64,000 nt of DNA from an uncultured Cytophagia bacterium (GTDB taxonomy: Bacteria; Zhuqueibacterota; Zhuqueibacteria; Residuimicrobiales; Residuimicrobiaceae): assembly GCA_964436305.1 (NCBI GenBank), contig CAYTCI010000004.1:11964-75963 (forward strand). The letters are read 5' to 3'. Position 1 is the first letter of the stretch. Each line of letters begins with the position of its first letter. Positions 8,376-61,708 of the stretch are shown piece after piece. The notes beneath the pieces were generated by a model. The model saw only the letters and a program-made list of their open reading frames with translations. It did no database searches and was not told where the DNA came from. A program made the position numbers and the translations under genes.

Positions 8376-8376
8376 G

Positions 8377-8448: not shown

Positions 8449-8507
8449 AGCGTGAACTCTATTTTAGCAAATATTCTGACGAAATGCAAGGCCTTTCTGC
8501 ACGGCCG

Positions 8508-8721: not shown

Positions 8722-8892
8722 ATGGCTGAAGAGATGGTATCGGCCGGAAAACTGGCCAAGGAATGGGGCGTAAGCGAAGCCGCCGTCAAAAAGGCGATCA
8801 AGGAACTCGGTGTCGAGCCCGACGCCAAAAAGGGTGTTTGCGCCCTCTACAGCGCAACCACAGCCGCCAAAATCAAAAAAGCGCTCAAGTAA
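8722..8892 (+). CDS. Small hypothetical protein (56 aa), Lys/Ala-rich
   Basis: An AGGAGG RBS sits 5 nt before ATG 8722. The product is MAEEMVSAGKLAKEWGVSEAAVKKAIKELGVEPDAKKGVCALYSATTAAKIKKALK. The stop codon is 11 nt before the RBS/ATG of the downstream kinase. It is below the length cut-off of the ORF track. Confidence 0.45.
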   Translation: MAEEMVSAGKLAKEWGVSEAAVKKAIKELGVEPDAKKGVCALYSATTAAKIKKALK

Positions 8893-8903
8893 AGGAGGTC
8901 TGC

Positions 8904-17947: not shown

Positions 17948-17973
17948 CTACCCGCATCCAGGGCTATCCTGTT

Positions 17974-22800: not shown

Positions 22801-23628
22801 ACCAGCCGGCAGAGCTATGACCGCAAGGCCCTCCTGCCCGCCTGGCTGCCGGTGGTCGAGCGCAGCCGCGGCTCCATCAAGCTCGAGATCCCCCGCAACA
22901 CCTGGCTGCGCACCCCGGAAATGAACTTCGAGATCTCTGGCGATCTCGATCTCGCCAAGGAAGGCGAGGATTTCGGCCTCTTCGGCGCCATCCAGATCGT
23001 CCGCGGCAATTATGACCTCTTCAGCCGCCGTTTCGACATCGAGGAGGGCACCCTCACCTTCGCCGGCGGTGACAACCTGCCGGAGATGTCTCTCAAGGCG
23101 GAGCATGTTTTCCGCAGCCAGGACAAGATCAAACATACTCTTGGCTTCACCGCCACCGGCGAGCTGCGCAAGCCCACCTTCGCCTTTACTCTCGACGAGG
23201 CGACCATCACCGAGTCCGATGCCGTTTCGTACCTCGCCTTCGGCCGCAGCTTCGGTGATCTGACCCACGGCGAAAAGAATGATCTGGTGCAGAATCAGCT
23301 GCAGATGAGCGGCGATGCCTTCAAACAGCTGCTGGCCGGGCAGATCGCCGGAGAGGTGACCCGTTCGCTCCAGCAAAAGCTGGATCTTGACGTCATTGAG
23401 TTCCGCGGCGACCAGAACTGGCGGCAATCGACGGTGGTGGTGGGCAAATACCTCACCAACGACCTCTATCTGAGCTACGAGCGCCCGATCAACCTGGGGC
23501 GGACCAATGAAGTGGCGCCCGAACAGGTGACCCTGGAATACGAGATCCTGCGCTCGCTCTTTCTGCAGGCCATCCGCGGTGATGAAAAAAATACCGGATT
23601 TGATCTGATCTACAAGTGGGAGAAATAG
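19840..23628 (+). CDS. tamB: Translocation and assembly module protein TamB (DUF490 C-terminus)
   Basis: The start is GTG, with an AGGAGG RBS. The product is 1262 aa, with an N-terminal TM anchor (LLLLLFVAAAGILTILY). A C-terminal DUF490-like segment is present (RGNYDLFSRRFDIEEGTLTFAGG...LYLSYERPI...LEYEI). Confidence 0.8.
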   Translation: MRLFFKIVAGLLLLLFVAAAGILTILYRRGDLHRQVQSALSQILAETLNARIEIGRCDGSLLHTLEIESVRLFQEADTLAQIDTLRCHWQPISLIWGEITLDRIEVSGLRLSLHQFADRSWNYQRYFKTSSDSSRSPWILRLRSLQLRAAEVSLCSAAGGFPPLQIDIPSLAGAGRLSSRGWQVELADARLAFTPPGLTIPALEARARGGERFLELESLRLATPDSRLRGRLRAHLGHAPLFAADLRLDSLAATDLSPLTGWRPPFARARIELTASGRPDSISLDLRAGAQQGQLHLQGWVKPAGMAAGRLELTALETDSLLDLPGRLDADLTFSGAGFSTAHGRWQASGALSHSLLSRHGLGMVPLSATLAESLVTLQLESAGAAGSLQAAAALDLGARPHYDLTLAAEGLDLAPLTAAPALASRLRLHLHLAGQGFDPAAAPAQLQLAAGSSTLAGFALDTLYAAGGATLGGVRLDTLRIAAPGLHGQGSGRWDWNGPLDLTCALQLKNHRSLAPLLGADSLRLNGLLQGRLAGPPDSLTFEATARLQDSRFNTLRFSEIHAALAGTRASRLKASLGLTAGAIAAGSALHADSLALHADYDGRQLAAQSRLVFNDSLRAAVALRADDQDSLWQVSLQRLELQQRDQLWHLEGPLPRLTLQPAGFRLADFALVQGRQRLEMNGSLGLADSLAFRVDLENLDLAALAPWFPPIPGMTGAMTWRADLTGLAARPCIVSSLQVDDIQLAGLPATSLQVSGRLEEARLTWEGSLNQGPENSAHFGGTLPLRLRWPLPHPLIEDDDPVDLSLRTRDLKAGILAAFIPGLDISGTLSGDLTIGKNWGDPQPGGYLEWRNGTFLAPFLGKPYKPVTARLELAPPLLLLQNLRATGGEGQLNGEGSWRFTLDRGHLSFQEMQLRLKADHFTAAESPELTLVLDGTLTLTDQLTRPKLNGALRVERARIDLAAFTETPSTLFQADLPLLLVARGDTSRQSYDRKALLPAWLPVVERSRGSIKLEIPRNTWLRTPEMNFEISGDLDLAKEGEDFGLFGAIQIVRGNYDLFSRRFDIEEGTLTFAGGDNLPEMSLKAEHVFRSQDKIKHTLGFTATGELRKPTFAFTLDEATITESDAVSYLAFGRSFGDLTHGEKNDLVQNQLQMSGDAFKQLLAGQIAGEVTRSLQQKLDLDVIEFRGDQNWRQSTVVVGKYLTNDLYLSYERPINLGRTNEVAPEQVTLEYEILRSLFLQAIRGDEKNTGFDLIYKWEK

Positions 23629-32733: not shown

Positions 32734-32905
32734 AACCGGCTGCCCCCGCCTCTCCGCTCCCTTGCATGCCGAAAAATTCAGCGAAACGGAGCGTTTATCC
32801 CTCCGACCGCGTGAAGTATGCAACATTTTCTGATTTACGGTGTTAAATCCTGAGAAGCATCGTATCCAGACACCTCGTTGTTTCATCCTTGATCCAGGAG
32901 TCTTT

Positions 32906-35900
32906 ATGAAACGTATCCTGCCAGCCCTTTGCCTGGGGCTGATCTTTCTGAGCAGCGTTGCCAGCGCGCAATATTTCGGCAAAAACAAGGTGCAATACAC
33001 CAACTTTAACTGGCAGTATGTACAGTCCGAGCACTTTAACGTCTACTTCACCGAGGGCGGCGACAAGATCGCCACCTTTGTCCTGGAAACCGCCGAAGAC
33101 GCTTACCGGCAGCTCCAGCACTCCTTCCGCTATCAGCTGACGGACCGTATCAAGATCATCCTTCACAACAGTCACAACGATTTTGAGCAAACCAATGTCG
33201 ATCTCTCCGAGCCGGAGGAATCGGTCGGCGGATTCACCGAATTCTTCAAGAACCGGGTGGTCATCCCCTACGACGGTGAATGGGAGGCCTTCCGCCATGT
33301 CATCCATCACGAACTGACCCATGCGGTCATGCTGCAGATGCTCTATGGCTCGGGCGCCCAGTCGATCATCACCGGCATCACCCAGATGCAGGTGCCGCTC
33401 TGGTTCATCGAGGGACTGGCCGAATACGAAAGCCGCGGCTGGGATATTGAGAGCGACATGTTCATGCGCGACGCGACCGTCAACGGCTATGTACCCGAAA
33501 TCCCCTATCTCAATGCGTTTCTCGCCTACAAGGGCGGGCAGTCGGTCTGGAATTACATGGTCGAGCGCTACGGCCAGGAAAAGGTCGGCGAAATCCTCGG
33601 CAAGGTGAAGGTCAACAAGAACTTCGACCGCGGTATGCAGCAGGCCATCGGCCTCAAGATGGAGGACCTGACCAAGCGCTGGCACCGCTATCTCAAGCGC
33701 AAATATTGGCCCGATGTCGAGAACCGCAGCGAGCCCGAGGAGATCGCCACCCGCTTGACCGACCACCGCAAGGATGGCAGCTTTGTCAACACGAGTCCGG
33801 CCCTGAGCAACCACGGCGACAAGCTCGTCTACAAATCGGACAAGAGCGACTATTTTGACCTCTATCTGATGAGCGCCATCGATGGCCGGGTGCTGAAACG
33901 CCTGGTCAAGGGCCAACGCGCCGGCAACCTCGAGGAGCTGCAATGGCTCAAGGGACCCGGCATGAGCTGGAGCCCCGATGACAAAAAGATCGTCTTCACC
34001 GCCGGCGCCGGGGGCCGCGACGCCATCCATATCGTCAATGTGAAAAAGGGCAAGATCGAAAAAAGCATCAAGCTCGATCTCGATGGCGTCTTCAATCCCA
34101 GCTGGAGCCCCAATGGCGACGAGATCGCCTTCACCGGCCTGAAGAACGGCCAGAGCGATATCTATCTCTACAATCTGCAAAGCCGGGCCCTGCGCAATCT
34201 CACCCGGGACCCCTTCAGCGATATCGAACCGAGCTGGGCGCCGGATGGCAAGACCCTGCTCTTCTCCAGTGACCGTGGCGACCGCGCCGCCGCTACCCTG
34301 CCGGCCACTTTCAACCCCCGCGACCTCGAGATGAAGAACTATGACATCTACGAGATCACCGTCGCCGACGGCGCCGTCCGGCGCATCGTCGAGAGCGCCT
34401 TCAGCGAACGCGTGCCGGTCTTCGCTCCCGATGGCAAGACCATCGCCTTCTCCAGCGACCGCCAGGGGGTGAGCAACATCTGGCTGAAAAATCTCGAGAG
34501 CGGCGAAGAATGGCCCGTCACCAACGTCCTCACCGGCGCCTTCCAGCCCTCCTGGGGCGGCAGCGCCGACCGGCTGGTCTTCACCTCCTTCTATTTCGCC
34601 GGTTATGACCTCTACCTGCTCAAGAATCCCCTGGATATCAAGCCCGGCAGCATCACCGTGCCGGAGACCAAGTTCGTCGAGCAGAAGCGCAAGGGCATAC
34701 GCGAAACCTTCGATGAGGAGGAATCCCTGGCGATGAAACCGGGGCTCTCCCCCATGCAGACCGAGGAGACCCGGCAGTACCGCGACTTTGTCTTCGACAA
34801 CAAGTTCGCCGAGGGGGATCTGGTCTCCCAGGTCAACAAGCGCAAGATCTTTCTCGACTCAACCGACTACAAGATGCCCACCGGCCAGTACAAGATCAAC
34901 AAGTACAAGGTCGAGCTGACGCCCGACCTCATCTACGGCGGCGTGGGCTACAGCCAGTTCTACGGCACCCAGGGGATGACCACGATCATGCTCTCGGACG
35001 TTCTGGGCAACCATCGCCTCGATATCGGCCTGGGCCTCTATGGTGATTTCCGCAACGCCGATTACGCCCTCACCTACTATTACCTGCCGCACCAACTCGA
35101 CATCGGCGCCGGCCTCTATCACAACGCCTATTATTACTACTCCGATTATACCGGCTATGTCCGTGACCGCAACTACGGCCTGAGCCTGTTGCTGAGCAAT
35201 CCCTTCAACCGTTACGAGCGGCTCAGCTACGGTGTGACCGCCATGGGCATCAACCGGACCTACATGGAGATTCCCGACGATATCACCGACCAGCTGATCA
35301 AGCTCGGTTATCTCTCGCCGCGTGACCGCTTTTTCCTGATGAACAATCTGACCTATACGCGCGACACCAGTGTCTGGGGCTACACCGGGCCGACCAACGG
35401 CACTGGCATGTCGTTCGGCGTCACCTACAGCCCGGGCCTGGGCAAGAACGGCATCGATTTCGCGACGGTCCGGCTGGATTATCGCCGTTACACGCGGCTG
35501 ATGCGCAATTACACCTTTGCCACGCGTCTGGCCACCGGATTCAGCGAGGGGCGCAACAAGCAAAAATTCTTCCTCGGCGGCCTGCCCAATTGGCTCAACT
35601 ATGGCTTTTTCAACGGCATTCGCGTCGAGCACATCGAGGATATCTATTTCGCCTCCTTCGAAATGCCGATGCGCGGCGCGGACTATTACACCCTCGAGGG
35701 CAACCGTTTCGCCCTGGCCAACCTCGAATTCCGCTTCCCGCTGATCCATCAGGCGATCATCGGCTTCCCTCTGCCCATTGCCCTCGGCAACATCGGCGGC
35801 GCCCTCTTCACCGATATGGGCATGGCCTGGGACAAGGGGGAATCGATCAAGCCGTTTGTCAAGGCGCCCAATGGTCTTTTCAAGACCAAGGATATGTTCG

Positions 35901-36031
35901 CCAGCATCGGCTTCGGGGTTCGCATGAATATCGGCTTTGCCCTGCTGCGTTACGATCTGGCCTGGCCGACCAATTTCTACAACACCTCGAAATCGCCGCA
36001 GGCCCTTTGGTCGCTCGGCGCCGATTTTTAG
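32906..36031 (+). CDS. Omp85-type beta-barrel protein with N-terminal HExxH metallopeptidase-like domain and TolB/PD40 beta-propeller (paralog 1)
   Basis: An AGGAG RBS precedes ATG 32906. The signal peptide is MKRILPALCLGLIFLSSVASA. The N-terminal domain carries HHELTHAV...WFIEGLAEYES (HExxH plus downstream Glu). Multiple PD40 repeats follow (SWSPDDKKIVFTA, PSWSPNGDEIAFTG, PSWAPDGKTLLFSSDRGD, FAPDGKTIAFSSDRQG). The C-terminus has Omp85 barrel motifs (FFLGG...MRGADYYT, EFRFPL, GALFTDMGMAW, GFGVRMNIGFALLRYDLAWP) and ends ...GADF. Confidence 0.75.
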   Translation: MKRILPALCLGLIFLSSVASAQYFGKNKVQYTNFNWQYVQSEHFNVYFTEGGDKIATFVLETAEDAYRQLQHSFRYQLTDRIKIILHNSHNDFEQTNVDLSEPEESVGGFTEFFKNRVVIPYDGEWEAFRHVIHHELTHAVMLQMLYGSGAQSIITGITQMQVPLWFIEGLAEYESRGWDIESDMFMRDATVNGYVPEIPYLNAFLAYKGGQSVWNYMVERYGQEKVGEILGKVKVNKNFDRGMQQAIGLKMEDLTKRWHRYLKRKYWPDVENRSEPEEIATRLTDHRKDGSFVNTSPALSNHGDKLVYKSDKSDYFDLYLMSAIDGRVLKRLVKGQRAGNLEELQWLKGPGMSWSPDDKKIVFTAGAGGRDAIHIVNVKKGKIEKSIKLDLDGVFNPSWSPNGDEIAFTGLKNGQSDIYLYNLQSRALRNLTRDPFSDIEPSWAPDGKTLLFSSDRGDRAAATLPATFNPRDLEMKNYDIYEITVADGAVRRIVESAFSERVPVFAPDGKTIAFSSDRQGVSNIWLKNLESGEEWPVTNVLTGAFQPSWGGSADRLVFTSFYFAGYDLYLLKNPLDIKPGSITVPETKFVEQKRKGIRETFDEEESLAMKPGLSPMQTEETRQYRDFVFDNKFAEGDLVSQVNKRKIFLDSTDYKMPTGQYKINKYKVELTPDLIYGGVGYSQFYGTQGMTTIMLSDVLGNHRLDIGLGLYGDFRNADYALTYYYLPHQLDIGAGLYHNAYYYYSDYTGYVRDRNYGLSLLLSNPFNRYERLSYGVTAMGINRTYMEIPDDITDQLIKLGYLSPRDRFFLMNNLTYTRDTSVWGYTGPTNGTGMSFGVTYSPGLGKNGIDFATVRLDYRRYTRLMRNYTFATRLATGFSEGRNKQKFFLGGLPNWLNYGFFNGIRVEHIEDIYFASFEMPMRGADYYTLEGNRFALANLEFRFPLIHQAIIGFPLPIALGNIGGALFTDMGMAWDKGESIKPFVKAPNGLFKTKDMFASIGFGVRMNIGFALLRYDLAWPTNFYNTSKSPQALWSLGADF

Positions 36032-36033
36032 GA

Positions 36034-37886
36034 TGGAGCCGAGCGTGCCACTGGAACCCTTTCGTGACCGGCTCGACAAGGCCATCCTGGTGTGTGATGG
36101 CGCCATGGGGACCATGCTCTACCGGCGGGGCATCTCGATCAGCCGCTGTTTCGAGGAGCTGAATCTCACCACGCCCGAGCTGGTACTCGATCTGCATCGG
36201 GCCTATGCGGCGGCGCGGGCGGATCTGCTCGAAACCAACACCTACGGCGCCAACCGGCTCAAGCTCAAGGCCTACGGTCTCGAGGAGCAGACGGCGGCCA
36301 TCAATCGTCGCGGCGTGGAGCTGGCGCGTCAGGCTGCCGGCGATGGGCTCTATGTGGCGGGCTCGATCGGGCCGAGCGGGGTCAAGGGGCCCCGGCTCGG
36401 CACCCGCAGCAGCACGGAACTGCAGGCGCTCTTTGCCGAACAGGCGGAGGCGCTGACCGGCGCCGGCGTCGACCTCTTCATCCTCGAGACCTTTCAGGAT
36501 CTCGAGGAGATCGTACTGGCGGTGCGGGCGGTGCGCGCGATCAGCGCCCTGCCGGTGATCGCACAGATGACCTATGATGAGGAGGGCAAGACCACCCTCG
36601 GCGTTGAGCCCGAGACCGTGGTCGAGCGTCTGCTCGCCGAGGGGGCCGATGTGATCGGTGCCAATTGTTCGGTGGGGCCGCAGGCGATGCTTGAGGTCAT
36701 CCGCCGCCTGGCGCGGGCGGGAGCGCCTTTCATCTCCGCGCAGCCGAATGCCGGCCTGCCGCGGCTCTTCGAGGGCCGGCTGCTTTACATGTCCACCCCC
36801 GAGTATCATGCTGAATTCGCCCGCCGGTTCATCACCGCCGGGGCCCATATCGTCGGCGGCTGCTGCGGGACGACCCCCGAGCACATCCGGGCCATCGCCG
36901 GAGCGGTGCGCGCCCTGCAGCCGCGCCGCGAGGCGGCCGCGGTGGCGGTCAGGGCGGAACGAGAGATCACCGTGCAGCCGGTGCCACGCCCCGAGAAATC
37001 AGCCCTGGCGGCGCGACTCGGCCGCAAGTTCGTCGTCTCCGTCGAGGTCCTCAGTCCGCGCGGCACCGATGTCAGCGCGGTGCTGGCCGGAGTGCGCAAG
37101 CTCTCCGGCTTCGGCATCGACGCGGTCAACATCCCGGACGGTCCGCGCGCCTCTTCACGGATGGCCCCGAGCGCCCTGGCGCAGCTGATCGAACGCTCCC
37201 TCCCGATCGAGACCATCCTGCATTACTGCTGCCGCGACCGCAATCTGCTCGGCATGCAATCCGACCTGCTGGGACACCATGCCCTCGGACTGCGCAATAT
37301 CCTCATCATCACCGGGGATCCGCCCAAGCTCGGCGACTATCCCACCGCGACCGCGGTCTTTGACGTCGATTCGATCGGGCTGACGCGGATGGTGCACGGC
37401 CTCAATCAGGGCTTCGATCTCGCCGGCAATCCGATCGGTGCGCCAACCGCCTGGCACATCGGTGTGGGGGCCAATTCCGGAGCGCTGGACCTCGATCTGG
37501 AGGTGGCCCGGCTCGAACAGAAAGCGGCCGCCGGCGCCGAATACATCCTCACCCAGCCGGTCTTCGATCCACAGCAGCTGGAAGCCTTTTTCCGGCGGAT
37601 CGAATCGCTCCGCCTCCCGGTCCTGGCCGGCGTCATGCCGCTGGTCAGCTACCGTACGGTTGAGTACCTCAACAACGAGGTCCCGGGCGTGGTCGTGCCC
37701 GAGGCAATCGCCCGCCGCTTCGCAGCGGCCAGCGACAGCACGGCAGCCAAAAAGACCGGCATCGAGATCGCCCAGACCGGCATCCGGGAACTGCGCCAGT
37801 TCAGCCAGGTCAAGGGGCTCTACCTGATGCCGCCCTTCACCAAAGACAAGTACGATATCGCCATTGAAATTTTACAGGTGCTATAA
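36034..37886 (+). CDS. Bifunctional homocysteine S-methyltransferase / 5,10-methylenetetrahydrofolate reductase (YitJ-type fusion)
   Basis: The N-terminal Hcy-binding domain (ILVCDGAMGTMLY...TNTYGAN...GCCGTTPEHI) is fused to a C-terminal MTHFR domain. The start is ATG 36034, or GTG 36046, which has a better RBS. Confidence 0.8.
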
Positions 37887-37898: not shown

Positions 37899-39158
37899 AT
37901 GAAACGAAACCCGATTTGCCTGCTGGCCCTGCTTCTTGCCACCCTGACCCCGGTTTTCGCCCAGAACCGGCCGGGGCCGCGCGGCCGGGATGCCATGGGG
38001 CCCGATATCTTTCAGATCCGCTTTTTCTGCTCGACCCGCCCGGAACAGCGCCCCATGGGCAGCGTCGATGCCTATATCCGCATCGCCAACGATGCCCTCT
38101 CCTTTCTCAAACAGGACTCGAGTTCCTGGCAAGCCCGCTATGATCTCGAGCTGATGATCTACGGCGGCAGCCGTGAGCTGGCCGCCTACAAGATCCTGCG
38201 CGACACGGTCACGGTCAGCCGCTTCGAGCTTACCAATTCGCGCATCAATCCTCGCACCCATGCCATGCACTTTAATCTCAAGCCCGGCGACTATACCTGG
38301 CGGCTCAAACTCCTCAATGCCGAGCAGCTGCCGCTGATCGAGCGTGAGGATCGCCTCAAGGTCCCCGATTTTGGCCTGGACCAGCTGCAGATCAGCGATA
38401 TTTTGCTGGCCGACAGCCTGGATTGCTCGGCGGGGCTCTACGCCCTCAATTTGCGCGGTGTTTTCAGCCGCAACAGCGGCGCCGTCGGTGTCATTTATGA
38501 GCTCTACCCCCCCGCCGGCGCCGACTCGGTGCGGACGCAGCTCACCCTGAGCGACCTCTCCGGCCGCAAGATGATGGAACAGCGTGAGAGCCGGCCGGCC
38601 GAGCCGGTGCTCCACGGCTGCATCGACCTGGGCAAGGAGATCACCAAGCCGGGCGAGTATCTCCTGCAGATCCGCGCCAGTGCGGGTTCGCGTTCGCTGC
38701 AGACCTCGCAGCGTCTCTTCCTGCTCTGGGGGCATGCCGCCGGCCCTGGCCTCAGCAACGAGGCGGCCGTCGAACAGCTCGCCCTGATCGCCAAGGGCAG
38801 CACCATTCGGGAGATCCTGCGGGCGCAAGGGGAGGAACGCGAAAAGCTGGTCGATGCCTTTTGGGCGCAACGGGACCCGACGCCGGGCACACCGGAGAAC
38901 GAATTGAAGGACGAGTTCTACCTGCGCCTCGATTTTGCCAATCAGCAGTTCGGCGAGCCGGTGAGCGGCCGGCCGGGGTGGCGTACCGATCGCGGCCGGG
39001 TCTTCATCCAGAACGGCACTCCGGACCAGATCGAGAAGCAGGGCGGCGAGATGGGCATGGCCTCCGCGGAAATCTGGAGCTACAATCGCCTCAACCGCCG
39101 CTATCTCTTCGTCGATCGCATGAACAATGGCGAATTCCGCCTGCTAAAAACCGAGTGA
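37899..39158 (+). CDS. GWxTD domain-containing secreted protein
   Basis: The signal peptide is MKRNPICLLALLLATLTPVFA. The C-terminal region has the GWRTDRGRVFIQNGTPDQIEK block typical of the GWxTD family. Confidence 0.65.
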   Translation: MKRNPICLLALLLATLTPVFAQNRPGPRGRDAMGPDIFQIRFFCSTRPEQRPMGSVDAYIRIANDALSFLKQDSSSWQARYDLELMIYGGSRELAAYKILRDTVTVSRFELTNSRINPRTHAMHFNLKPGDYTWRLKLLNAEQLPLIEREDRLKVPDFGLDQLQISDILLADSLDCSAGLYALNLRGVFSRNSGAVGVIYELYPPAGADSVRTQLTLSDLSGRKMMEQRESRPAEPVLHGCIDLGKEITKPGEYLLQIRASAGSRSLQTSQRLFLLWGHAAGPGLSNEAAVEQLALIAKGSTIREILRAQGEEREKLVDAFWAQRDPTPGTPENELKDEFYLRLDFANQQFGEPVSGRPGWRTDRGRVFIQNGTPDQIEKQGGEMGMASAEIWSYNRLNRRYLFVDRMNNGEFRLLKTE

Positions 39159-48383: not shown

Positions 48384-48557
48384 ATGGTATTGACTGCAGG
48401 GGGTGGCGGCCAGGGAATAGAACCCTGGCCCCTTCTGTTAAATCTCCTCGATGCGCAGGCTGTCGTCACCATTTTACACCGCGGTGCTAAAAATGGACAC
48501 CAGAGTACGACACTCTGCGCATCAGAGGATCAATCGTGAACAAACCGTGTGGAAAAA

Positions 48558-49379
48558 ATGAAAGAACCACTCAAAAAGATTGTCGCCAAGGAGAAAGAGC
48601 AGCTTAAGCAGAAAGTGGCGAAGCTCAACGAAACCGTGAAGGCCTCTAAAGATCGGAATCAACGATTATTGGAGGGCAAGATGCATCTCGGTAAAAAAGA
48701 GCTCAAAACAATCGCCGGATTGGTATTTCTGACCAGCTTCATCTTCATCGAGGGCATAAGCCTGCTATCCAGTGATTTTTTAGGCTCAGCGCAGACCGGC
48801 AAGGACGATCAGCTCACCTCGCTCTTGCGGGAACAGCAGACCATGATGGCCATTGACGTACAGCGCCGGACCAGTGTGAACAAAATCACGGGCATCATCT
48901 CACGCTACAATCGAACTATGTCCGACACAGATAAACTGCGGATCGCCAACGAGATTTACGAGATGACCAAAAAGTATCCGAATCTCAACGAAGACTTTAT
49001 CTGTGCCACCATCACCCACGAAACCGGTAAAACCTGGAATCCCCAGGTCAAATCCCCGATGGGCGCCATGGGCCTGATGCAGATCATGCCCGCCACCGGC
49101 GCCTTCCTGGCAGCCCAGGAAGGGATCGACTGGACCACGGCGGATCAGGTGCTCAACGACCCGGTCAACAACATCCGGCTCGGCTGCCGCTACATGAGCG
49201 AACTGGTAGGAACCTACAAACAAGACGGCGCCCTCGCGGCCTATAATGGCGGCCCCAAGCGCGCAGCCCTGTGGCTGGCCTCCAATCGCAACGACAGCAC
49301 GCTCTTCAAGGAGACCCGGACCTACGTACCGGCGGTCAACCGGCTCTACGACCAGTTTCGCAAGGAAGGCGTGATGTAA
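48558..49379 (+). CDS. Lytic transglycosylase (SLT domain) protein
   Basis: The SLT catalytic region is ICATITHETGKTWNPQVKSPMGAMGLMQIMPATG...AYNGGP. An N-terminal coiled-coil or TM segment is present. Confidence 0.75.
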   Translation: MKEPLKKIVAKEKEQLKQKVAKLNETVKASKDRNQRLLEGKMHLGKKELKTIAGLVFLTSFIFIEGISLLSSDFLGSAQTGKDDQLTSLLREQQTMMAIDVQRRTSVNKITGIISRYNRTMSDTDKLRIANEIYEMTKKYPNLNEDFICATITHETGKTWNPQVKSPMGAMGLMQIMPATGAFLAAQEGIDWTTADQVLNDPVNNIRLGCRYMSELVGTYKQDGALAAYNGGPKRAALWLASNRNDSTLFKETRTYVPAVNRLYDQFRKEGVM

Positions 49380-49412
49380 GAGTCATCACCCGACACAGGT
49401 TTGCCAACGCCA

Positions 49413-49442
49413 GGCGGCGTCTCGAAGACGCCGCCTTTTTTT
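49413..49442 (+). terminator. Rho-independent terminator after the SLT gene
   Basis: Stem ggcggcgtc pairs with gacgccgcc around loop tcgaa, followed by a T7 run. Confidence 0.7.
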
Positions 49443-49578
49443 ATCCCGCCGCTTTTACCTTGATAATAGCCGGTAATATCCGTATTTTTCATCAGCACCC
49501 CGGAGGTCCCTCTCCGCTGCCTGCACCTGCAGCCAGCCTCTCCTGAGTTCTTTCCATCCAGCAACAAAGGAGGATTCC

Positions 49579-51726
49579 TTGGGAAAAGCAGTTCGCTCCG
49601 CGACCCTGCTCCTGCTCTGCGCCACCCTCGCCCGGGCGGTGAACTGGTACGCCGTCGGCCTCAATGACCAGCAGAACTGGAGCTCCTTCACTATCCAGGC
49701 GATCGATATCTATCACGGCGCCTACCTCCACCATTCCGAATTCACCCCTTCCATGGAAATCCAGATGAGCCGGGACTGGTATGGCAACCGGCCCAATGAT
49801 GAGCCCTTCGTCTTTTATTGCGAGTTCTCCCTATCCGCAGATGCCGTCATCATCGGCGCCAAGGTGCGCCTGGACAACACCTGGCATACGGCGCAACCGC
49901 AGGATGTCTGGACCGCCGAAAACCAGTTTCAGACTGCACCGGCCGGCCAACCCCGCTGCCTGCTGCGGCAATATGTCCAGCGCGATTACTCCGGCGCGCG
50001 CAGCAAACGCTATCTGATGCAGGTTTCCCCGATCCAGTTCGGCTCTCCGTTCAGCATCGCAATCACCTTCCTGGCCCCCAACACCCTCGAGCTGGACAGC
50101 GAGCGTGCCTCCATTTTCAACACCGATTTCCTGACATACCGGGAGCGGGTCCCGATCCGCTACTCTTTCCTGGACGTTCATGCTCCGGAAAATGCACCGG
50201 TTTTCGAGAATGCCGGCGGCACTATCCCCTTCGCAAAGAACGCCGAGGGGTGGTGGCGCGCTGACCTCACCTACCTCTATTGGATTGATCCTTATATGAG
50301 TTGGCCGGCGCGCAAGAACATCAAACCGGAACTCTTTTATTACCAGGATAACGTCGAGGGCTACTACCTCCTTTCCGCCTTCCCGCCGGTCGAGCCGCAA
50401 GAGCGCAAGCCGAAAAAGGTTCTGATCCTTGCGGACCTGGGCAGTCAAACCATGGGCTACACCCGGGAGTTTCTGCTCGACCAATTCCACGATATCACCG
50501 ACCGGAGCTTGAGCTGGAATGACTCCCTGAACATCCTCCTCATGGACCAGCTCGAGCCCAAACTTCTGCGCAGCCGCTTCTTGCCGGCCGACTATGCCAA
50601 CCAGACGGCGCTCTTCAACGAGATGCGCAGCTATCCAATCCCCCAGCTCAGCGCTACCACGCAGCTGCTCCGCCGGGCGGTGGCTTTTTTCAATCAGGCT
50701 GCAACCGATGGGGAGATCTGGCTGATCACGACGGCTGAAAAGGACGCCGTCCCGGTGCAAAAGGCCAATGACATCATCGAACTGACGGTCCGTCAGCTCC
50801 GCCAGCAGGTCGTCATCAAGATCGTCGCATGCGGCCAGCCCAGCGATTACCTTTATGTCGGCGGCCAGTATTATGCAGGCAATGATTACCTGTTTGAGAA
50901 TCTGACGCGACTGACGCACGGCGGCACCCTGCGCCCGGGCCATGCAGAGGCCTACCATCTGCCGCTGGCCCTGGCCGAGCTGCTCGCCCCGGCGCTCGAT
51001 CTGATGGAGGCCGATCCGGTCCCGGCAAACGGCTACAACCGGAACAAGTATTATTTCTTCTCCAGCCGGACCCGCTATCCCCTGCTCTATCCCTACATCG
51101 AATTAGGACGGGCGGAGGGAGGGCCGCCTTTCATCACCGATTTTTACGGCAATATCGAGGGCGACTGGTTCCACAAGAGAATGGACCTCGCCGCCATGCC
51201 GGCCATCAAGCAGCTGCCCCGCCTCAAGCAGCTCTGGCATGCCCATCATATCGAGGAATTGCTGCAGCAGCCCCAGGCCTGGAACCTGATCGACGAGATC
51301 GGCCGTGTCAGCAAGGAGAACAGCCTGGTCAATGCCTATTGCGCCCTGGTCATCCCGGCGGCCAATGGCTATGCCGCCTTCCAGCGCCTCGAAGAGCATG
51401 AAACTGCGATAACCTCCTCCTCAGCGCCGCGGCAGCCCGAACATTTTGAGGTCAGGGCCTATCCCAATCCTTTCAACACCCAGACCCGGGTCATCGCCCG
51501 GTTTCAGCCGGCCGAGCACAGCGGATTCGTGTCCGTCCGCATCTATTCGCTGCTCGGTGCACAGGTCCGGCAATGGCAGCAGCCCGTGAGCGCCGGAGCA
51601 AGCCGTATTGAACTCGTCTGGGACGGTGCCAATGACCGGCAGGAACCGGTCAGCAGTGGCCTCTACTGGATCCAGGTCCAGCGCGGCACCGAGCAGTATG
51701 TCCTCAAACTCACCTGTCTGAAATAG
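49579..51726 (+). CDS. Secreted VIT/vWA-like protein with T9SS-type C-terminal sorting domain (paralog A)
   Basis: The start is TTG, with an AAGGAGG RBS. A signal peptide is present. The central block KVLILADLGSQTMGY... is vWA-like. The C-terminal 85 or so residues (FEVRAYPNPFNTQTRV...VRIYSLLGAQVRQW...SGLYWIQVQRGTEQYVLKLTCLK) match the T9SS/Por C-terminal sorting domain pattern. Confidence 0.65.
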   Translation: MGKAVRSATLLLLCATLARAVNWYAVGLNDQQNWSSFTIQAIDIYHGAYLHHSEFTPSMEIQMSRDWYGNRPNDEPFVFYCEFSLSADAVIIGAKVRLDNTWHTAQPQDVWTAENQFQTAPAGQPRCLLRQYVQRDYSGARSKRYLMQVSPIQFGSPFSIAITFLAPNTLELDSERASIFNTDFLTYRERVPIRYSFLDVHAPENAPVFENAGGTIPFAKNAEGWWRADLTYLYWIDPYMSWPARKNIKPELFYYQDNVEGYYLLSAFPPVEPQERKPKKVLILADLGSQTMGYTREFLLDQFHDITDRSLSWNDSLNILLMDQLEPKLLRSRFLPADYANQTALFNEMRSYPIPQLSATTQLLRRAVAFFNQAATDGEIWLITTAEKDAVPVQKANDIIELTVRQLRQQVVIKIVACGQPSDYLYVGGQYYAGNDYLFENLTRLTHGGTLRPGHAEAYHLPLALAELLAPALDLMEADPVPANGYNRNKYYFFSSRTRYPLLYPYIELGRAEGGPPFITDFYGNIEGDWFHKRMDLAAMPAIKQLPRLKQLWHAHHIEELLQQPQAWNLIDEIGRVSKENSLVNAYCALVIPAANGYAAFQRLEEHETAITSSSAPRQPEHFEVRAYPNPFNTQTRVIARFQPAEHSGFVSVRIYSLLGAQVRQWQQPVSAGASRIELVWDGANDRQEPVSSGLYWIQVQRGTEQYVLKLTCLK

Positions 51727-51739
51727 GGAGGCGAAAACC

Positions 51740-53884
51740 ATGAAACGGCAGTTCGTTCTCCTCCTCAGCTTGCTGCTGGTCACAATAGCCTCCGCCACCC
51801 GTATCAGCATTTATGAAGCGGGCTATCCGCAGAATCGCGACGACAATGTCCGTGTGGAAGAGGTGACCGATGTGGTCCGGACCCGCGGTATCTATATCGA
51901 ACACCAACTCCATCTCTCTTTCGCTTACGATTTCAACTCCTGGTTCTTCACCAATTATAATGAGCTCGAGCTGGAATGGACTTTCCAGATGCCGGAAGAG
52001 GTTACCCTGTTCAATCTATATTACTGGAAAGAGGATTCGGTTTGCCGCGCCATCCTGCTGGACAAATGGACGGCACAGAAGATGTTCGACGAGAAGAGCA
52101 GCCCCACACGCGAACCGGCCTTGCTGACGCGGGGCATCGCCGATCAGAACGGCCAGGTCCAGTATGCCTTGCGTCTCTTTCCAATCAAGCGATTCACCAG
52201 ATGCCGGATCATGATCCAGTACCTCGTGCCAGCCCGGCCCTCCAGCGGCCGGCTGCGCACCTGGCTGCCCCTGCCGCAGGTGACGACCGAAACCGGCGGC
52301 GCCAAAATCCTGCGCCTGCTCTACCTCCGCGGGGATAATCCTGATTCCGCCGCGATCGTCGGCCTGCCCGGGATCACTTTCACCTACTACCCCAGGGACA
52401 AGGCCTGGGAAGCGGAGTTGCCAATCGCCTCCCTGGATTATGCGGAGCTGATCCTGCCCTCTCCCATCCGGGGGGAGTATTACCTCTCCCTCTATCGCAA
52501 GGGGGATGAAGCCTTTTACAATCTGGCGGTCTATCCGCCGGCGATCTCTTCGGTCCACCAGCCGCGCAAGATCCTGATCCTGGTGGACTTTAATCCCGGT
52601 AACAGCAACGGGCTGAGTGCTGATTTGCTGCTCTCCTCGCTGAAAGAAACCATGGAGCGCACCTTGACCCCTGCCGACTCTGCTTCGGTCATCGTGACGT
52701 TTACCGAACCCGCTTATGGCAGCCGGAGCTGGCAGGGATGCTCGCAGCAGAACATCGACCGCCTTTTCGGGGATTTTTGGGGCAAACGTTTTTACAATGT
52801 CAATCTGTCGCAGGAGTTGCTGGCTGCAGCCGAATGGTTCATGGGGACCAATGGGCAGGGGGAGATCCTCTGGATCACCAATCGTGCCGATTTTCCCACA
52901 GCCACCGCATTGGCCGCCCAATATGCCCGGGAGATCGCCGGGCACTTTCCCGCCGGCACCCCTGTCCACGTGCTTGACCTGGAGAATACCTTCAGGCTGG
53001 TTTACTTTCCGGATTTCGGCTATGGAAACGGGAGCTATACCTTCCTTTCCGAGCTGACCCGAATCACCGGCGGCAATCTCTTTTTCTATCGCTTCCATCC
53101 CTTAAAAACCGCTTTGGCGGCGCTCTTTTTCGACAAGGTGATGCACTACAAAGAGGTGGAGGTGCAGACGCGCATGCAGAACGGGTATACCTATGACCGG
53201 CAGAACCATGCGCGCTTCGAAGGCTATTATCCGCTCGATTTTCCGGTAATCCAGACCGGGCAATTGCAGGGTACTTTCCCGATGACCGTGACCCTTATCG
53301 GCAGTACCCTCGATACCGTCGTGAGAAAGGAGATCGTCATTCCCGAATCGGCGGTTGATGCCGGCACTGAACATCTGGCAACCGCCCATTATGGCCATCA
53401 GATCGAAAAGATGGGCCGGCGGTATCAGAACAACGCACTGATCGAAAACCTGATCGCCCTCAGCACGTCTGCTGGCATCCTCTCCCCCTATACCGCTTTC
53501 ATCATCCCGGATGATCCAACCAGTTGCTATGTCCCGGACTTTATCGATGACACCCGTAAAGGCAGTTCAGGGGCAGAGTTGCATCCCGCCATGCAGGACA
53601 CGCTGGTGGTTTTTTCGGCGTCTCCCAATCCTTTCAATCCGCAAACGACCTTCACCATCACGCTGCCGGTGGTTCCAGCGGAGCGCGAACTGGTCGTGAA
53701 TCTCTATAACTTGCGTGGTCAGCAGGTCCGGCAGCTGTGTTTACCGGCGCTCCAGCCTGGCCGTTATCAGATCAGCTGGGATGGGCGTTCCGACGCAGGA
53801 GTCTCCCTTGCAAGTGGCAAATACTTCGCACTCTTGCAGGTGTCGCGGCAGCGCAAGGTCCTGCCACTGACCTTGCTAAAATAG
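51740..53884 (+). CDS. Secreted VIT/vWA-like protein with T9SS-type C-terminal sorting domain (paralog B)
   Basis: The signal peptide is MKRQFVLLLSLLLVTIASA. The N-terminal region (EWTFQMPEEVTLFNLYYWKEDSVCRAILLDKWTAQKMFDEK...ALLTRG...IMIQYL) resembles a VIT domain. A KILILVDFNPGNSNG vWA-like block follows. The C-terminal domain (SPNPFNPQTTFTI...VNLYNLRGQQVRQL...SGKYFALLQVSRQRKVLPLTLLK) is the same sorting-domain type as in paralog A. Confidence 0.65.
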   Translation: MKRQFVLLLSLLLVTIASATRISIYEAGYPQNRDDNVRVEEVTDVVRTRGIYIEHQLHLSFAYDFNSWFFTNYNELELEWTFQMPEEVTLFNLYYWKEDSVCRAILLDKWTAQKMFDEKSSPTREPALLTRGIADQNGQVQYALRLFPIKRFTRCRIMIQYLVPARPSSGRLRTWLPLPQVTTETGGAKILRLLYLRGDNPDSAAIVGLPGITFTYYPRDKAWEAELPIASLDYAELILPSPIRGEYYLSLYRKGDEAFYNLAVYPPAISSVHQPRKILILVDFNPGNSNGLSADLLLSSLKETMERTLTPADSASVIVTFTEPAYGSRSWQGCSQQNIDRLFGDFWGKRFYNVNLSQELLAAAEWFMGTNGQGEILWITNRADFPTATALAAQYAREIAGHFPAGTPVHVLDLENTFRLVYFPDFGYGNGSYTFLSELTRITGGNLFFYRFHPLKTALAALFFDKVMHYKEVEVQTRMQNGYTYDRQNHARFEGYYPLDFPVIQTGQLQGTFPMTVTLIGSTLDTVVRKEIVIPESAVDAGTEHLATAHYGHQIEKMGRRYQNNALIENLIALSTSAGILSPYTAFIIPDDPTSCYVPDFIDDTRKGSSGAELHPAMQDTLVVFSASPNPFNPQTTFTITLPVVPAERELVVNLYNLRGQQVRQLCLPALQPGRYQISWDGRSDAGVSLASGKYFALLQVSRQRKVLPLTLLK

Positions 53885-58786: not shown

Positions 58787-61708
58787 ATGAATGCAACCAA
58801 CCTGACGCATACGCTCCGGCGCGCCGCCCTCCTGCTGGCGGCGCTCGCCGGACTGGCAGCCGCCCCCGCGGAGGCGCAGTACTATTTCGGCCGCAACAAG
58901 GTCAACTACCACCACTTTGAGTGGCGCGTTCTCCAGACCGAGCATTTCGAGATCTATTACTATCCGGAAATGCGCGAACTCACCGAAATCGGCGCCGCCT
59001 GGGCCGAGGAGAGCTACCATTTCCTTGAGAACCGGTTCCATCTCAGCCTGCGCGAACGCATCCCCCTGATCTTTTACGCCACCCACGCCCATTTCCAGGA
59101 GACCAACACCCTGCCCTACCTCATTCCGGAGGGTATCGGCGGTTTTTTTGAGTACATCAAGGGGCGGGTCGTGGTGCCTGCCAACGGCTCCATCCCCGAA
59201 TTCAAAAAAGTGATCCGCCACGAACTGGTGCATGTCTTCACCCATGCCAAAGTGAACCGGGTGCTCAAGGAGCACAAGCAATTGAACAATCCGGGACTGC
59301 CGCTGTGGTTCAGCGAGGGGCTGGCCGAATACTGGTCGAGCGGCTGGGACAGCGAGGCCGAGATGTTCCTCCGCGACGCGGTCATCAATAACTACCTCTA
59401 CCCCGTCTCGGCCATCTACCAGATCAACGGCACCTTTTTGATGTACAAGGAGGGCCAGAGTCTCCTCCGTTTCATCGATACCCATTGGGGGGAGGACAAG
59501 ATCCTGCAGTTGATCGATAATGTCTGGATGGCCCCCTATTTTTCCGAGGTGATGACCCTGACCCTGGGCATCGATCTGCATGAATTCGATGAACGCTGGA
59601 TCTATGCCCTCAAGAAGGAGAGCTATCCCCTGCTGCAGGACAACGATGCGGCCTCGCGGGTGAGCCTGCAGGTCACCCGCCAGGGGATCAACATCAAGCC
59701 CGCCTTCTGGCAAGCGGATACAGCCCGGGTGGTTTTTATCTCCAACCGCAGCGGCTATGCCAACATCTATCAGGCGCCCCTGGCGGGCAGCCCGCGCGAA
59801 CCCAAACTGGAGGTTCTGGTTGCGGGCGAACGCAGCGAGGCCTTTGAATCCTTTCACCTGCTCAACAGCGCCATCGACGTCAACCGCAGCGGCGAGCTCG
59901 CCTTCATCTCCAAGGCCGGCGAAAGGGACCGGCTCTACATCATGGAGCTGTCCGCAAAAAAGATCACCGGCCGGCATGCGTTCGAGCCGCTGGTCTCGCT
60001 CTACTCCCCCCGCTGGTCGCCCGACGGCAGCCGCATGGTCTTTTCCGGTCTGGCCTTCAGCGGCCGCCGGGATCTCTATCTCTTCGAGCGCGCGACCGGG
60101 CAGCTGACGCCGCTGACCGACGATGCCTGCGACGACAAGGACCCGGTCTTCTCACCCGATGGCCGCCGGATCGTCTTCAGCTCGGACCGCGGCGGCACCG
60201 GCGAACGCGGGGTCTACAACCTCTTTCTCTGTGATCTCGATGCGGGCGGCATCACGCCGCTGACCGGCGGCCACGGCCATGATCAAATGCCCGCCTGGTC
60301 GCCCGACGGCAGCCATATCGCCTTTATCTCCGACCGCAGCGGCACGCAGAATATCTGGGTGGTGCCGGCGCCGGTCCGGGCCCTCTCCCCCGCCCAGCGT
60401 CTCGGACTGGAGCCGGTGGCTGAGGCCCGCCAGCCCCTTCCCGCGGCGCCGCGCCAGCTGACCCATTTTATCACCGGGGCCTACGATCCGCAGTGGACCC
60501 CCCGCGGGGATCTGCTCTTCACGATCTTTGAAAAATTCTCCTTCAACATCGGTCTGATCAAGGGGATGGCCGACAGCCTGCACCAGCCCGTGCCGCCCGT
60601 GGCCGCCAACCTGGCCGCTGACTCCCTGTCGACCGACCGCTGGGACTACCCGCGCCTCAGCGGCGCCGGCGAGAGCCGCGACCTCCGCTACAAGCCCAAG
60701 TACAGTCTCGACATCGCCCAGTCGCAGATCACCCAGGATCCCATTTTTGGCACCTCCGGCGGCATGCAGCTCGCCGTCTCGGACCTGCTCGGCAATTACC
60801 AGTACTTCTTCCTCCTCTACAACACCGCCCGGGTCCAGAGCGAACTGCTCTCCAGCTTTAACGTCGCGGTCTCACGGGTCGACCTCTCCCATCGCACCAA
60901 CGTCGCTGCCGGCCTCTTTCACTTCGCCGGCCAGTATTACAACCGCTATGACTACTGGTTCTGGGAACGGCGCTATGGCGGTTACACCGCCCTCAGCTAT
61001 CCCCTCTCGAAATTCAACCGCGTCGAGGCCAGTCTCAATGTGCGCTGGTCGGATAAAAAGTGGTTTCTCAACGACTACCGCCGCAAGGCCCTGCTGGTCT
61101 CCAATTTCGTCTCCTACGTTCAGGACAACTCGCTCTGGGGCCCGACCGGCCCGCTGGACGGCAGCCGGATGAATTTCACCCTGGGAACGACCGTCGATGT
61201 CGCGCACGCCAATGTCCGCTTCCTCACGGCCATCGTCGATTACCGGCGCTATTTTCGCATCTCCACCCAGAGCACCCATGCCCTCCGCTGCTGGGCCCAG
61301 ATCAACAACGGCAAGGAATCCACCCCCTTCTATATGGGCGGCAGCTGGGATCTGCGCGGTTACCGGCTCTGGAGCCTCTGGGGCACCAAACTCGCCATGG
61401 TCAGCAACGAGCTGCGCTTTCCTTTCATCGACCGCTTCGTGCTCAAGTTCCCGATCGGCGGGGTGGCCATCAGCAGCATCCGTGGGGCGCTCTTCTGCGA
61501 CCTCGGCAACGCCTGGGACCAGCGTCTGCCAGACCTGCTTGGCAGCACCGGCTGTGGCATCCGTTTTCAGCTTGGAGGGATGCTGGTGTTGCGTTTCGAT
61601 ACCGGCCGCAAATTCATCCTCACGGATCCGGGGCGGTTTTATCAGCGGAACAACTGGCAGTTCGAGCGCAACTGGTTCACGCAATTCTTTTTCGGCTGGG
61701 ATTTCTGA
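58787..61708 (+). CDS. Omp85-type beta-barrel protein with N-terminal HExxH metallopeptidase-like domain and TolB/PD40 beta-propeller (paralog 2)
   Basis: The signal peptide is LLLAALAGLAAAPAEA. The peptidase-like domain carries RHELVHVFTHA...WFSEGLAEYWS. PD40 repeats follow (PRWSPDGSRMVFSG, PVFSPDGRRIVFSSDRGG, PAWSPDGSHIAFISDRSG). The C-terminal Omp85 barrel motifs are FYMGGSWDLRGYRLWSLWG, ELRFPF, FCDLGNAW and GCGIRFQLGGMLVLRFDTG, and the protein ends FFFGWDF. The N-terminus (QYYFGRNKVNY) parallels paralog 1 (QYFGKNKVQY). Confidence 0.75.
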   Translation: MNATNLTHTLRRAALLLAALAGLAAAPAEAQYYFGRNKVNYHHFEWRVLQTEHFEIYYYPEMRELTEIGAAWAEESYHFLENRFHLSLRERIPLIFYATHAHFQETNTLPYLIPEGIGGFFEYIKGRVVVPANGSIPEFKKVIRHELVHVFTHAKVNRVLKEHKQLNNPGLPLWFSEGLAEYWSSGWDSEAEMFLRDAVINNYLYPVSAIYQINGTFLMYKEGQSLLRFIDTHWGEDKILQLIDNVWMAPYFSEVMTLTLGIDLHEFDERWIYALKKESYPLLQDNDAASRVSLQVTRQGINIKPAFWQADTARVVFISNRSGYANIYQAPLAGSPREPKLEVLVAGERSEAFESFHLLNSAIDVNRSGELAFISKAGERDRLYIMELSAKKITGRHAFEPLVSLYSPRWSPDGSRMVFSGLAFSGRRDLYLFERATGQLTPLTDDACDDKDPVFSPDGRRIVFSSDRGGTGERGVYNLFLCDLDAGGITPLTGGHGHDQMPAWSPDGSHIAFISDRSGTQNIWVVPAPVRALSPAQRLGLEPVAEARQPLPAAPRQLTHFITGAYDPQWTPRGDLLFTIFEKFSFNIGLIKGMADSLHQPVPPVAANLAADSLSTDRWDYPRLSGAGESRDLRYKPKYSLDIAQSQITQDPIFGTSGGMQLAVSDLLGNYQYFFLLYNTARVQSELLSSFNVAVSRVDLSHRTNVAAGLFHFAGQYYNRYDYWFWERRYGGYTALSYPLSKFNRVEASLNVRWSDKKWFLNDYRRKALLVSNFVSYVQDNSLWGPTGPLDGSRMNFTLGTTVDVAHANVRFLTAIVDYRRYFRISTQSTHALRCWAQINNGKESTPFYMGGSWDLRGYRLWSLWGTKLAMVSNELRFPFIDRFVLKFPIGGVAISSIRGALFCDLGNAWDQRLPDLLGSTGCGIRFQLGGMLVLRFDTGRKFILTDPGRFYQRNNWQFERNWFTQFFFGWDF

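Follow-up and report, generated by a model that had tools for sequence, protein, structure and literature searches.

A tandem pair of ITIH-like proteins with VIT-like N-termini, cryptic vWA folds and predicted T9SS type A sorting domains

Two adjacent genes in the window, by which we mean the whole stretch of 64,000 nucleotides that was analysed, probably encode co-transcribed, secreted ITIH-like paralogs that carry a T9SS type A C-terminal sorting domain (CTD), would be exported by that system and would serve as metal-independent binding or scaffold modules at the cell surface. Gene A (49579..51726, 715 aa, TTG start) is the faster-diverging paralog and comprises a signal peptide, a VIT-like beta-sandwich, a vWA-like fold without MIDAS, a post-vWA region, a linker and the CTD, while gene B (51740..53884, 714 aa, ATG start) is the more conservative paralog and has the same architecture. 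These genes and all features described below lie on the forward strand. Both open reading frames are found where the sequence-only reading of this DNA had placed them; the gap between them, given there as 14 nt, measures 13 nt (51727-51739).

The signals surrounding the pair point to a single transcription unit. The upstream lytic-transglycosylase gene ends in a strong intrinsic terminator (49412..49436) with an 11-bp stem containing 8 G-C pairs and followed by T7, which delimits the A-B operon on its 5′ side. Upstream of A lies a promoter-like site, TTGATA-17-TATTTT (49460..49488), that agrees with the consensus at 9 of 12 positions; it is a consensus match only, and such sites are no more numerous in the region than expected from shuffling. 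Direct reading of the sequence gives one Shine-Dalgarno sequence, AAGGAGGA (49567..49574), located 4 nt 5′ of the TTG start of A, and a second, GGAGG (51727..51731), within the 13-nt gap and 8 nt 5′ of the ATG of B. Taken together, these signals and the short gap predict that A and B form a co-transcribed two-gene operon. Inspection of the N-termini, together with the family consensus, likewise predicts a Sec-type signal peptide on each protein. In A, this peptide covers residues 1-20 (MGKAVRSATLLLLCATLARA; 49579..49638), with a basic N-terminal region, a hydrophobic core and an A-x-A motif preceding V21; it is kept in the A-family consensus and modelled as a helix, mostly at low confidence. 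In B, it covers residues 1-19 (MKRQFVLLLSLLLVTIASA; 51740..51796), is followed by T20 and also appears as a low-confidence N-terminal helix in the model.

At the opposite end of both proteins, the CTD is modelled as an Ig-like sandwich with seven strands at residues 624-713. The domain of A (residues 624-715; 51448..51723) scores 25.0 bits against TIGR04183 over residues 628-711 (cut-off 23), matches the PorU CTD with an E of 7e-8 and reaches 21.2 bits against Por_Secre_tail. The domain of B (residues 624-714; 53609..53881) matches FlgD_ig at 37.5 bits (cut-off 27) and the PorU CTD with an E of 3e-6, but fails both TIGR04183 (12.7 bits, cut-off 23) and Por_Secre_tail; a T9SS-type CTD had been claimed for both proteins, and the claim is supported, with A alone above the TIGR04183 cut-off and the two CTDs being homologous. 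The pattern on which that claim was founded (PNPFN, L-x-G-x-x-V-R, SG-x-Y and a terminal LK) is indeed present in both. Por_Secre_tail is matched by all ten members of the A family (E<=0.1), by 20/33 of the B family (E<=0.01) and by 57/69 members of the wider family (E<=0.001). The alignments of the A, B and wider families all show an invariant G660, the glycine of the beta3-beta4 turn, and the CTDs agree with the features described for T9SS type A domains, including the seven strands and this glycine (PMC11285876). A CTD profile built from the A and B families matched only these two open reading frames in a six-frame translation of the window.

It is unlikely that the terminal domain is merely a FlgD-like Ig domain in an organism without a T9SS, with A and B being periplasmic, outer-membrane-associated or otherwise released. 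FlgD_ig is the sole above-threshold match of B, and the B-family profile, which picks up the CTDs of PorU and PorZ in a PDB search, matches FlgD structures equally well. Moreover, a scan of window ORFs revealed none of the T9SS core genes (SprA/Sov, PorV, PorU, GldK/L/M/N), for which reason we only infer T9SS export and surface anchoring of A and B, and Caldithrix abyssi is reported in its genome paper to have no gliding machinery of the Bacteroidetes type (PMC5317091). Against this reading, the domain sits at the extreme C-terminus behind a disordered linker, which in B spans residues 601-623 (53540..53608) and falls below a pLDDT of 50 at residues 610-620; A passes TIGR04183, both proteins match the PorU CTD, and Por_Secre_tail prevails in the wider family as counted above. 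In addition, the A-B pair at locus L005 stands within a run of at least 11 consecutive CTD-bearing genes that are otherwise unrelated, and a tail common to such genes behaves as a sorting signal and not as a functional Ig module.

The CTD-bearing array at L005 also contains two canonical VIT-VWA-CTD genes (1590-3620 and 3632-5713), whose products are full-length homologs of the pair (hhalign E of 2e-33 for B and 7.7e-14 for A) and provide the reference for the remaining domains. The VIT domain of B (residues ~21-175; 51800..52264) matches PF08487 over residues 70-161 at 21.2 bits (E 3.3e-4), below the Pfam gathering cut-off of 26.5, yet 30/33 B orthologs (best E 1.9e-10) and 68/69 wider-family members are matched. 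Its FQMPEEV, ALLTRG and IQYL blocks, taken from the outset as VIT-type, align to FPLPDNAV, PALLEYLG and ITYV of a canonical VIT protein. The corresponding beta-sandwich of A (residues ~22-170; 49642..50088) is modelled with a pLDDT mostly of 80-90 and aligns by hhalign from residue 78 onward with the FPLP block of canonical VIT proteins; the Pfam VIT search gave no match for A, and only 1/10 members of its family is matched (E 0.079). The assignment of a VIT N-terminus is therefore supported in both A and B by profile comparison and predicted fold, while direct Pfam recognition falls short in B and fails in A.

The central domain is hidden from sequence models to a greater extent. No vWA match was obtained for A or B in Pfam or NCBIfam HMM searches, and among relatives VWA_3 is matched by 1/33 of the B family, 2/10 of the A family and 4/69 of the wider family. 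In B, however, residues ~275-468 (52562..53143) are modelled as a beta-alpha-beta core, with a pLDDT mostly of 80-95, that Foldseek and hhalign relate to vWA; in A, residues ~277-470 (50407..50988) show strand-helix alternation in the model, at a pLDDT of only ~40-70, and align to canonical vWA. The vWA-like core proposed earlier is thus retained as a fold, predicted from structural matches and profile comparison, which support a cryptic vWA domain, whereas its MIDAS is replaced in both proteins. Neither A nor B has an intact DxSxS ... T ... D motif, and each family keeps its own replacements. The MIDAS loop of A reads D286-L-G-S-Q-T and its beta4 position T-T-A-E387-K-D389; in B, the loop reads D283-F-N-P-G-N288-S289-N-G, with a 4-residue insertion at the former MIDAS, and the beta4 position T-N381-R.

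These substitutions bear on the reading, implied by the earlier description of a vWA adhesin, that A and B are classical metal-dependent vWA/MIDAS proteins bridged through a cation to an acidic ligand residue, which we regard as quite improbable. In its favour, A and B share their fold with ITIH1 and vWA adhesins, and the former MIDAS positions still carry conserved polar residues (D283, N288, S/T289 and N381 in B; D286, E387 and D389 in A). Nevertheless, neither family retains DxSxS or a conserved MIDAS Thr, and the beta4 Asp has become Asn in 31/33 members of the B family and Thr in 7/10 of the A family, in which only 2 have Asp. The D.S.S pattern occurs in only 8/147 wider-family representatives, while a canonical neighbour in the L005 array retains DVSSS and LTDG, which indicates that MIDAS loss is specific to this family. 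Since the metal site is replaced across this family, the equation of a vWA domain with a MIDAS adhesin is not to be assumed here.

Following the vWA-like core, the model of B shows a beta-sandwich with two long helices (residues ~469-600; 53144..53539), a region common to canonical VIT-vWA proteins, whose RLWAKAKID...LTPYTAF region aligns with it; residues 502-589 also match residues 478-566 of TIGR03788 weakly, at 10.7 bits against a cut-off of 551. Overall, the AlphaFold model of B has a pLDDT of 83.8 and a pTM of 0.72, and that of A a pLDDT of 61, with low confidence in the central and post-vWA parts. Foldseek places ITIH1 (6fpy) as the best PDB match of the B model (E 3.9e-22), ahead of vWA structures and PorU, and for the A model, too, the closest fold is that of ITIH1 (E 6e-15).

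The view that A and B are diverged full-length paralogs of low identity is borne out, since BLASTP aligns them at 24% identity over 628 aa (E 1e-25) and hhalign compares their families with a probability of 100 and an E of 3.6e-65 over 695 columns, a similarity far above chance at the sequence level. An A-type gene, recognized by subfamily HMMs, lies directly upstream of every examined B ortholog (the window, L005, L006, L007, L008, L012 and L013), and one further locus for which no DNA was available is consistent with the same order by gene size and Pfam matches. In L001-L004, which represent one population, three deletions break A and leave it frameshifted next to an intact B, so that A can in some cases be dispensed with. 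That B alone is functional and A is a duplicate decaying into a pseudogene is nonetheless very improbable: the faster evolution of A, the loss of its Pfam-detectable VIT and these frameshifts would fit, but A is intact and constant in length, shows ~150 invariant columns in a comparison of 10 homologs at 43-82% identity to it, has a strong Shine-Dalgarno sequence of its own and is kept 5′ of B even where the B orthologs share only 37-62% identity with that of the window. Instead, A may be a derived, faster-evolving copy of a B-like ancestor, and the fixed A-then-B pair offers a clean example of asymmetric divergence following tandem duplication. The wider family forms at least 635 clusters at 50% identity, its more distant relatives being single genes and not pairs, and some homologs are labelled Calditrichaeota.

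Under the preferred reading of A and B as exported surface proteins, the Sec system would deliver each into the periplasm, where it would fold; a T9SS-type translocon would then recognize the CTD, and a PorU-like sortase would cleave in the linker and attach the mature protein onto the cell surface. There, A and B may act as binding or scaffold modules independent of a metal site, a property proposed because the MIDAS is gone, and possibly jointly as an A-B heterocomplex; a role as adhesins is conjecture. A bolder version, to which we give little credence, holds that they form an obligate heterodimeric metal-free surface receptor, resembling the two-heavy-chain inter-alpha-inhibitor or an integrin beta-like module, and that the proteins may be deeply knotted, as 3_1 or 6_3 knots have been predicted for the ITIH-like class (bioRxiv 10.1101/2023.06.16.545156). 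If so, the T9SS-type translocon of a deep lineage would have to pass fully folded, knotted cargo of ~65 kDa. The pair is a sound yet fairly ordinary case of a large family of probable cell-surface binding proteins, and little here would greatly surprise a specialist. What the analysis offers is a structural description, ITIH-like VIT plus cryptic vWA, for a large family known in databases by its tail alone, under the labels ‘T9SS type A sorting domain’ and ‘FlgD Ig-like’ protein.

Among known systems, the marine proteobacterial sortase target protein (TIGR03788) is likewise a bacterial VIT-vWA ectoprotein with a C-terminal sorting signal. Its sorting system, which we take to be of the sortase/LPXTG type, is unlike the one predicted for A and B, and the match of B lies far under the cut-off. 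With T9SS type A cargo (TIGR04183 / PF18962; the CTDs of RgpB, PorU and PorZ), the pair shares the terminal seven-strand Ig-like domain of ~90 residues, the beta3-beta4 Gly, a C-terminal basic residue and the flexible linker ahead of the CTD. It differs in that its CTD is of the WDG...SGxYF variety, which also scores as FlgD_ig, in that B is under the TIGR04183 cut-off, and in that the host is not one of the named Bacteroidota; the secretion of A and B is a prediction. Canonical bacterial VIT-VWA-CTD proteins have the signal peptide, domain order and CTD in common with A and B; in contrast, Pfam finds VWA, VWA_2 and VWA_3 in them and none of these in A and B, one keeps DVSSS...LTDG where the MIDAS of A and B is altered, and A and B constitute a fixed pair. 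ITIH1 (PDB 6fpy; PMC7170535), the top structural match of both models over ~620-720 aligned columns, has the same order of VIT, vWA and hybrid-type beta region. By analogy, A and B may correspond to the two homologous chains of inter-alpha-inhibitor (HC1 and HC2 in mammals), and the secretion, C-terminal processing and glycan attachment of ITIH are parallels for A and B by analogy only. The sequence identity to ITIH1 is only 10-12%, a PDB sequence search with the B-family profile returned no ITIH chain at E<=10, and Pfam reported no match of A or B to the ITIH C-terminal domain, the T9SS CTD standing at the end instead. In ITIH1, the MIDAS is functional and drives dimerisation and C3 binding (PMC7170535), whereas A and B are without the motif. 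As judged from the models, the resemblance of A and B to ITIH is confined to fold and domain order.

Genes A (49579-51726, + strand, 715 aa, TTG start) and B (51740-53884, + strand, 714 aa, ATG start) lie exactly where the sequence-only reading had placed them, separated by 13 nt (51727-51739) rather than the 14 nt it gave. That reading had described the products as diverged paralogs, and full-length homology far beyond chance is established by BLASTP (24% identity across 628 residues, E 1e-25) and by comparing the profiles of their ortholog families (probability 100, E 3.6e-65, 695 columns). The upstream lytic-transglycosylase gene (48549-49379) is terminated by a strong hairpin (49412-49436, an 11-bp stem followed by T7), 3′ of which a promoter-like site, a consensus match only, precedes A (49460-49488). 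The motif AAGGAGGA precedes A (49567-49574) and GGAGG precedes B (51727-51731), and no clear terminator was seen in the sequence downstream of B; the arrangement is most simply read as an operon of two genes. By inspection, the N-termini of A (MGKAVRSATLLLLCATLARA followed by V) and B (MKRQFVLLLSLLLVTIASA followed by T) have the look of Sec signal peptides, and both are kept in the family consensus. Lipoprotein anchoring of A via Cys14 was rejected on inspection because its L-L-L-C context is not a lipobox. An intracellular vWA role of the MoxR/BatA type was likewise rejected, since both proteins carry signal peptides and no AAA+ gene was called at L001, a related locus whose flanking genes are the same as those of the window pair.

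The proposed architecture of A and B, comprising a signal peptide, VIT domain, vWA-like core, post-vWA region, linker and T9SS-type tail, is very probably correct. In single-protein scans, B reached 21.2 bits for VIT (cut-off 26.5), and Pfam and NCBIfam HMMs returned no vWA match in either protein. As judged from profile matches, family-level scans support the VIT domain and the tail: 33 B orthologs gave VIT in 30, Por_Secre_tail in 20, FlgD_ig in 31 and VWA_3 in one (E limit 0.01); 10 A orthologs gave VIT in one (E 0.079), Por_Secre_tail in all 10, FlgD_ig in eight and VWA_3 in two (E limit 0.1); and 69 wider-family representatives gave VIT in 68, Por_Secre_tail in 57, FlgD_ig in 52 and VWA_3 in four (E limit 0.001). 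An AlphaFold model of B derived from 33 sequences (pLDDT 83.8, pTM 0.72) comprises an N-terminal beta-sandwich, a core of alternating strands and helices (approximately residues 275-468), a second beta-sandwich accompanied by two long helices, a linker that is disordered (residues 610-620, pLDDT <50) and a seven-stranded terminal domain. Its top Foldseek match in the PDB is human inter-alpha-inhibitor heavy chain 1 (ITIH1, 6fpy; E 3.9e-22), followed by vWA-domain proteins (ArnB paralog VWA2, a Catenulispora vWA protein, Sec23/24, Mfa5, RrgA, CMG2 and CLCA1) and also PorU. The model of A, from 10 sequences, is weaker (pLDDT 61.4), and its best match is likewise ITIH1 (E 6e-15). ITIH-class VIT-vWA proteins are predicted to be knotted (bioRxiv 10.1101/2023.06.16.545156). 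Searched against PDB sequences, the B-family profile retrieved no ITIH or vWA chain, only FlgD and the tails of PorU (6za2) and PorZ (5m11). Using hhalign, the B family aligns over its full length with two canonical relatives, labelled VIT, VWA and CTD by Pfam, at the distant locus L005 (probability 99.9, E 2e-33), and the A family aligns with them from residue 78 onwards (probability 98.1, E 7.7e-14). In the B-family alignment, the blocks FQMPEEV, ALLTRG and IQYL of B, on which the VIT assignment had originally been based, fall opposite FPLPDNAV, PALLEYLG and ITYV in the canonical VIT domain. The fold matches and these alignments bear out the VIT-vWA reading; detection of the vWA by plain HMMs failed, the domain being visible only by fold and profile-profile evidence.

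The vWA metal-binding motif (MIDAS, DxSxS...T...D) has been lost in both families, as the alignments show. One canonical L005 gene retains DVSSS and LTDG intact. In the beta1 loop, the canonical D-V-S-S-S is replaced in the B family by D283-[YF]-[NS]-x-x-N288-[ST]289-x-G, with a four-residue insertion, and in the A family by D286-[LV]-G-x-x-[TS]. The beta4 aspartate, found in the canonical L-T-D-G, corresponds to Asn381 in 31/33 B-family sequences and to T-T-A-E387-x-D389 in the A family. The MIDAS threonine, present in the canonical protein, is not conserved in the B family, and at this position the alignment of the A family is offset by one residue. D.S.S occurs in the MIDAS region of only eight of the 147 wider-family representatives. 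The replacement residues are themselves conserved, and the former metal site may therefore have a different use. ITIH1 lacking the MIDAS still binds vitronectin, fibronectin and TGF-beta latency peptides, and ITIH1 lacking the whole vWA domain still binds vitronectin and fibronectin (PMC7170535), so loss of the motif in A and B does not exclude ligand binding.

[quoted passage not shown] For A this holds against the TIGR04183 model of the type A sorting domain (25.0 bits, cut-off 23), with Por_Secre_tail (21.2 bits) and FlgD_ig (19.7 bits) below their cut-offs of 27; B falls short of TIGR04183 (12.7 bits, cut-off 23) but passes FlgD_ig (37.5 bits, cut-off 27). Both tails also match the C-terminal domain of PorU, the T9SS sortase (A, E 7e-8; B, E 3e-6). 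Structurally, T9SS C-terminal domains are described as seven-strand Ig-like sandwiches in which beta4 starts with an essential glycine and which carry a C-terminal motif (PMC11285876). Both models place seven strands in residues 624-713, Gly660 in the beta3-beta4 turn is invariant in all alignments, and the last residues of both proteins are LK. Within the window, the tail profile matches A and B alone; in related loci it matches many unrelated neighbour genes, the distribution to be expected of a sorting signal. T9SS-type export of A and B is, on this analysis, fairly probable. The further claim that A and B are a marker of a T9SS in this genome is plausible but unproven: the window ORFs that were scanned yielded no T9SS core gene or other component, and the Caldithrix abyssi genome paper reports Bacteroidetes-type gliding machinery as absent (PMC5317091). 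Several FCB phyla outside the Bacteroidota are named in a recent review as possible carriers of a T9SS. Two ~380-aa proteins encoded next to Omp85-fusion genes were considered as PorV candidates and rejected, one being a DUF4432 protein and the other showing a weak GNAT match.

Elsewhere in the window, two paralogous proteins of ~1000 aa (32840-36031 and 58787-61708, both +) begin with an HExxH/Peptidase_MA_2-like N-terminus, continue with a TolB/PD40 beta-propeller and end in an Omp85/BamA-like barrel, an unusual protease-propeller-barrel fusion. An Omp85/POTRA protein (17467-19830, +), with just 14 relatives at E<=1e-30, is followed directly by TamB (19840-23628, +), and the two look like a TamA-TamB pair; the start of the 787-aa Omp85 ORF is probably called too early, since homologs have ~595-640 aa. 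The window also encodes a GWxTD domain-containing protein (37899-39158, +; TIGR04514, 97.7 bits), tandem MiaB-family radical-SAM methylthiotransferase paralogs with UPF0004 and Radical_SAM domains (12655-13944 and 13977-15278, both +), the second also carrying a TRAM domain, and a single ORF fusing homocysteine S-methyltransferase and methylenetetrahydrofolate reductase domains (35937-37886, +).

In a word-indexed search B had 40 relatives and A had 11, labelled 'bacterium', Calditrichaeota, KSB1, Latescibacteria and Bacteroidetes. The source lineage is sparsely sampled, its nearest public records being MAGs, mostly from digester-type metagenomes. An exhaustive B-profile search yielded at least 635 representatives at E <= 1e-30, and over 140 of these are full-length (~700-730 aa); apart from a few closer B orthologs, those sampled share only ~19-26% identity with B. 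A scan of genome contigs returned one locus only. With subfamily HMMs built without the tail, each B ortholog examined (in the window, L005, L006, L007, L008, L012 and L013) proved to have an A-type gene immediately 5′ of it, and one further locus lacking DNA is consistent with the pair by gene size and Pfam matches; the flanking genes vary from locus to locus. Of the more distant members, the four examined (L009, L010, L011 and L014) are B-like, and no A-type partner occurs at L009, L011 or L014, where flanks are readable. The likely history is that a B-like ancestor was duplicated in tandem, that A then diverged faster and lost its Pfam-detectable VIT, and that the order of the genes became fixed. 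In L001-L004, four independent assemblies of one population, three shared deletions of 4, 1 and 1 nt break the A ortholog (7846-9987) into four ORFs, and B is intact; in the sister genome L006, A is intact. The finding is real, and the structural interpretation made from sequence is supported. A and B are members of a large and unstudied family of T9SS-type cargo that is ITIH-like and has a cryptic vWA without a MIDAS, a result that helps annotation and brings no surprise.

From what is established for T9SS type A cargo (PMC8545088, PMC5562754), A and B would be exported by the Sec system and fold within the periplasm, where the translocon would recognise their C-terminal domains; a PorU-type sortase would then cut them in the linker, and the mature proteins would be joined to surface lipopolysaccharide. 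There they could bind ligands or act as a scaffold, independently of any metal site and perhaps as a complex of A with B. A binding or adhesin role is suggested tentatively, and an A-B heterocomplex is rather unlikely. The distant A-B ortholog pair of L005 lies on a 3.64-Mb contig in an array (1-22166) of at least 11 consecutive same-strand genes, all ending in the same T9SS-type tail: a vWA protein, the two canonical VIT-VWA proteins, an unknown, A, B, an FG-GAP protein, an fn3 protein and three Reg_prop propeller proteins. ITIH1 itself has a vWA domain with a functional MIDAS together with hybrid domains and resembles an integrin beta chain (PMC7170535). The combination of vWA and FG-GAP proteins in the L005 array is reminiscent of integrin parts.
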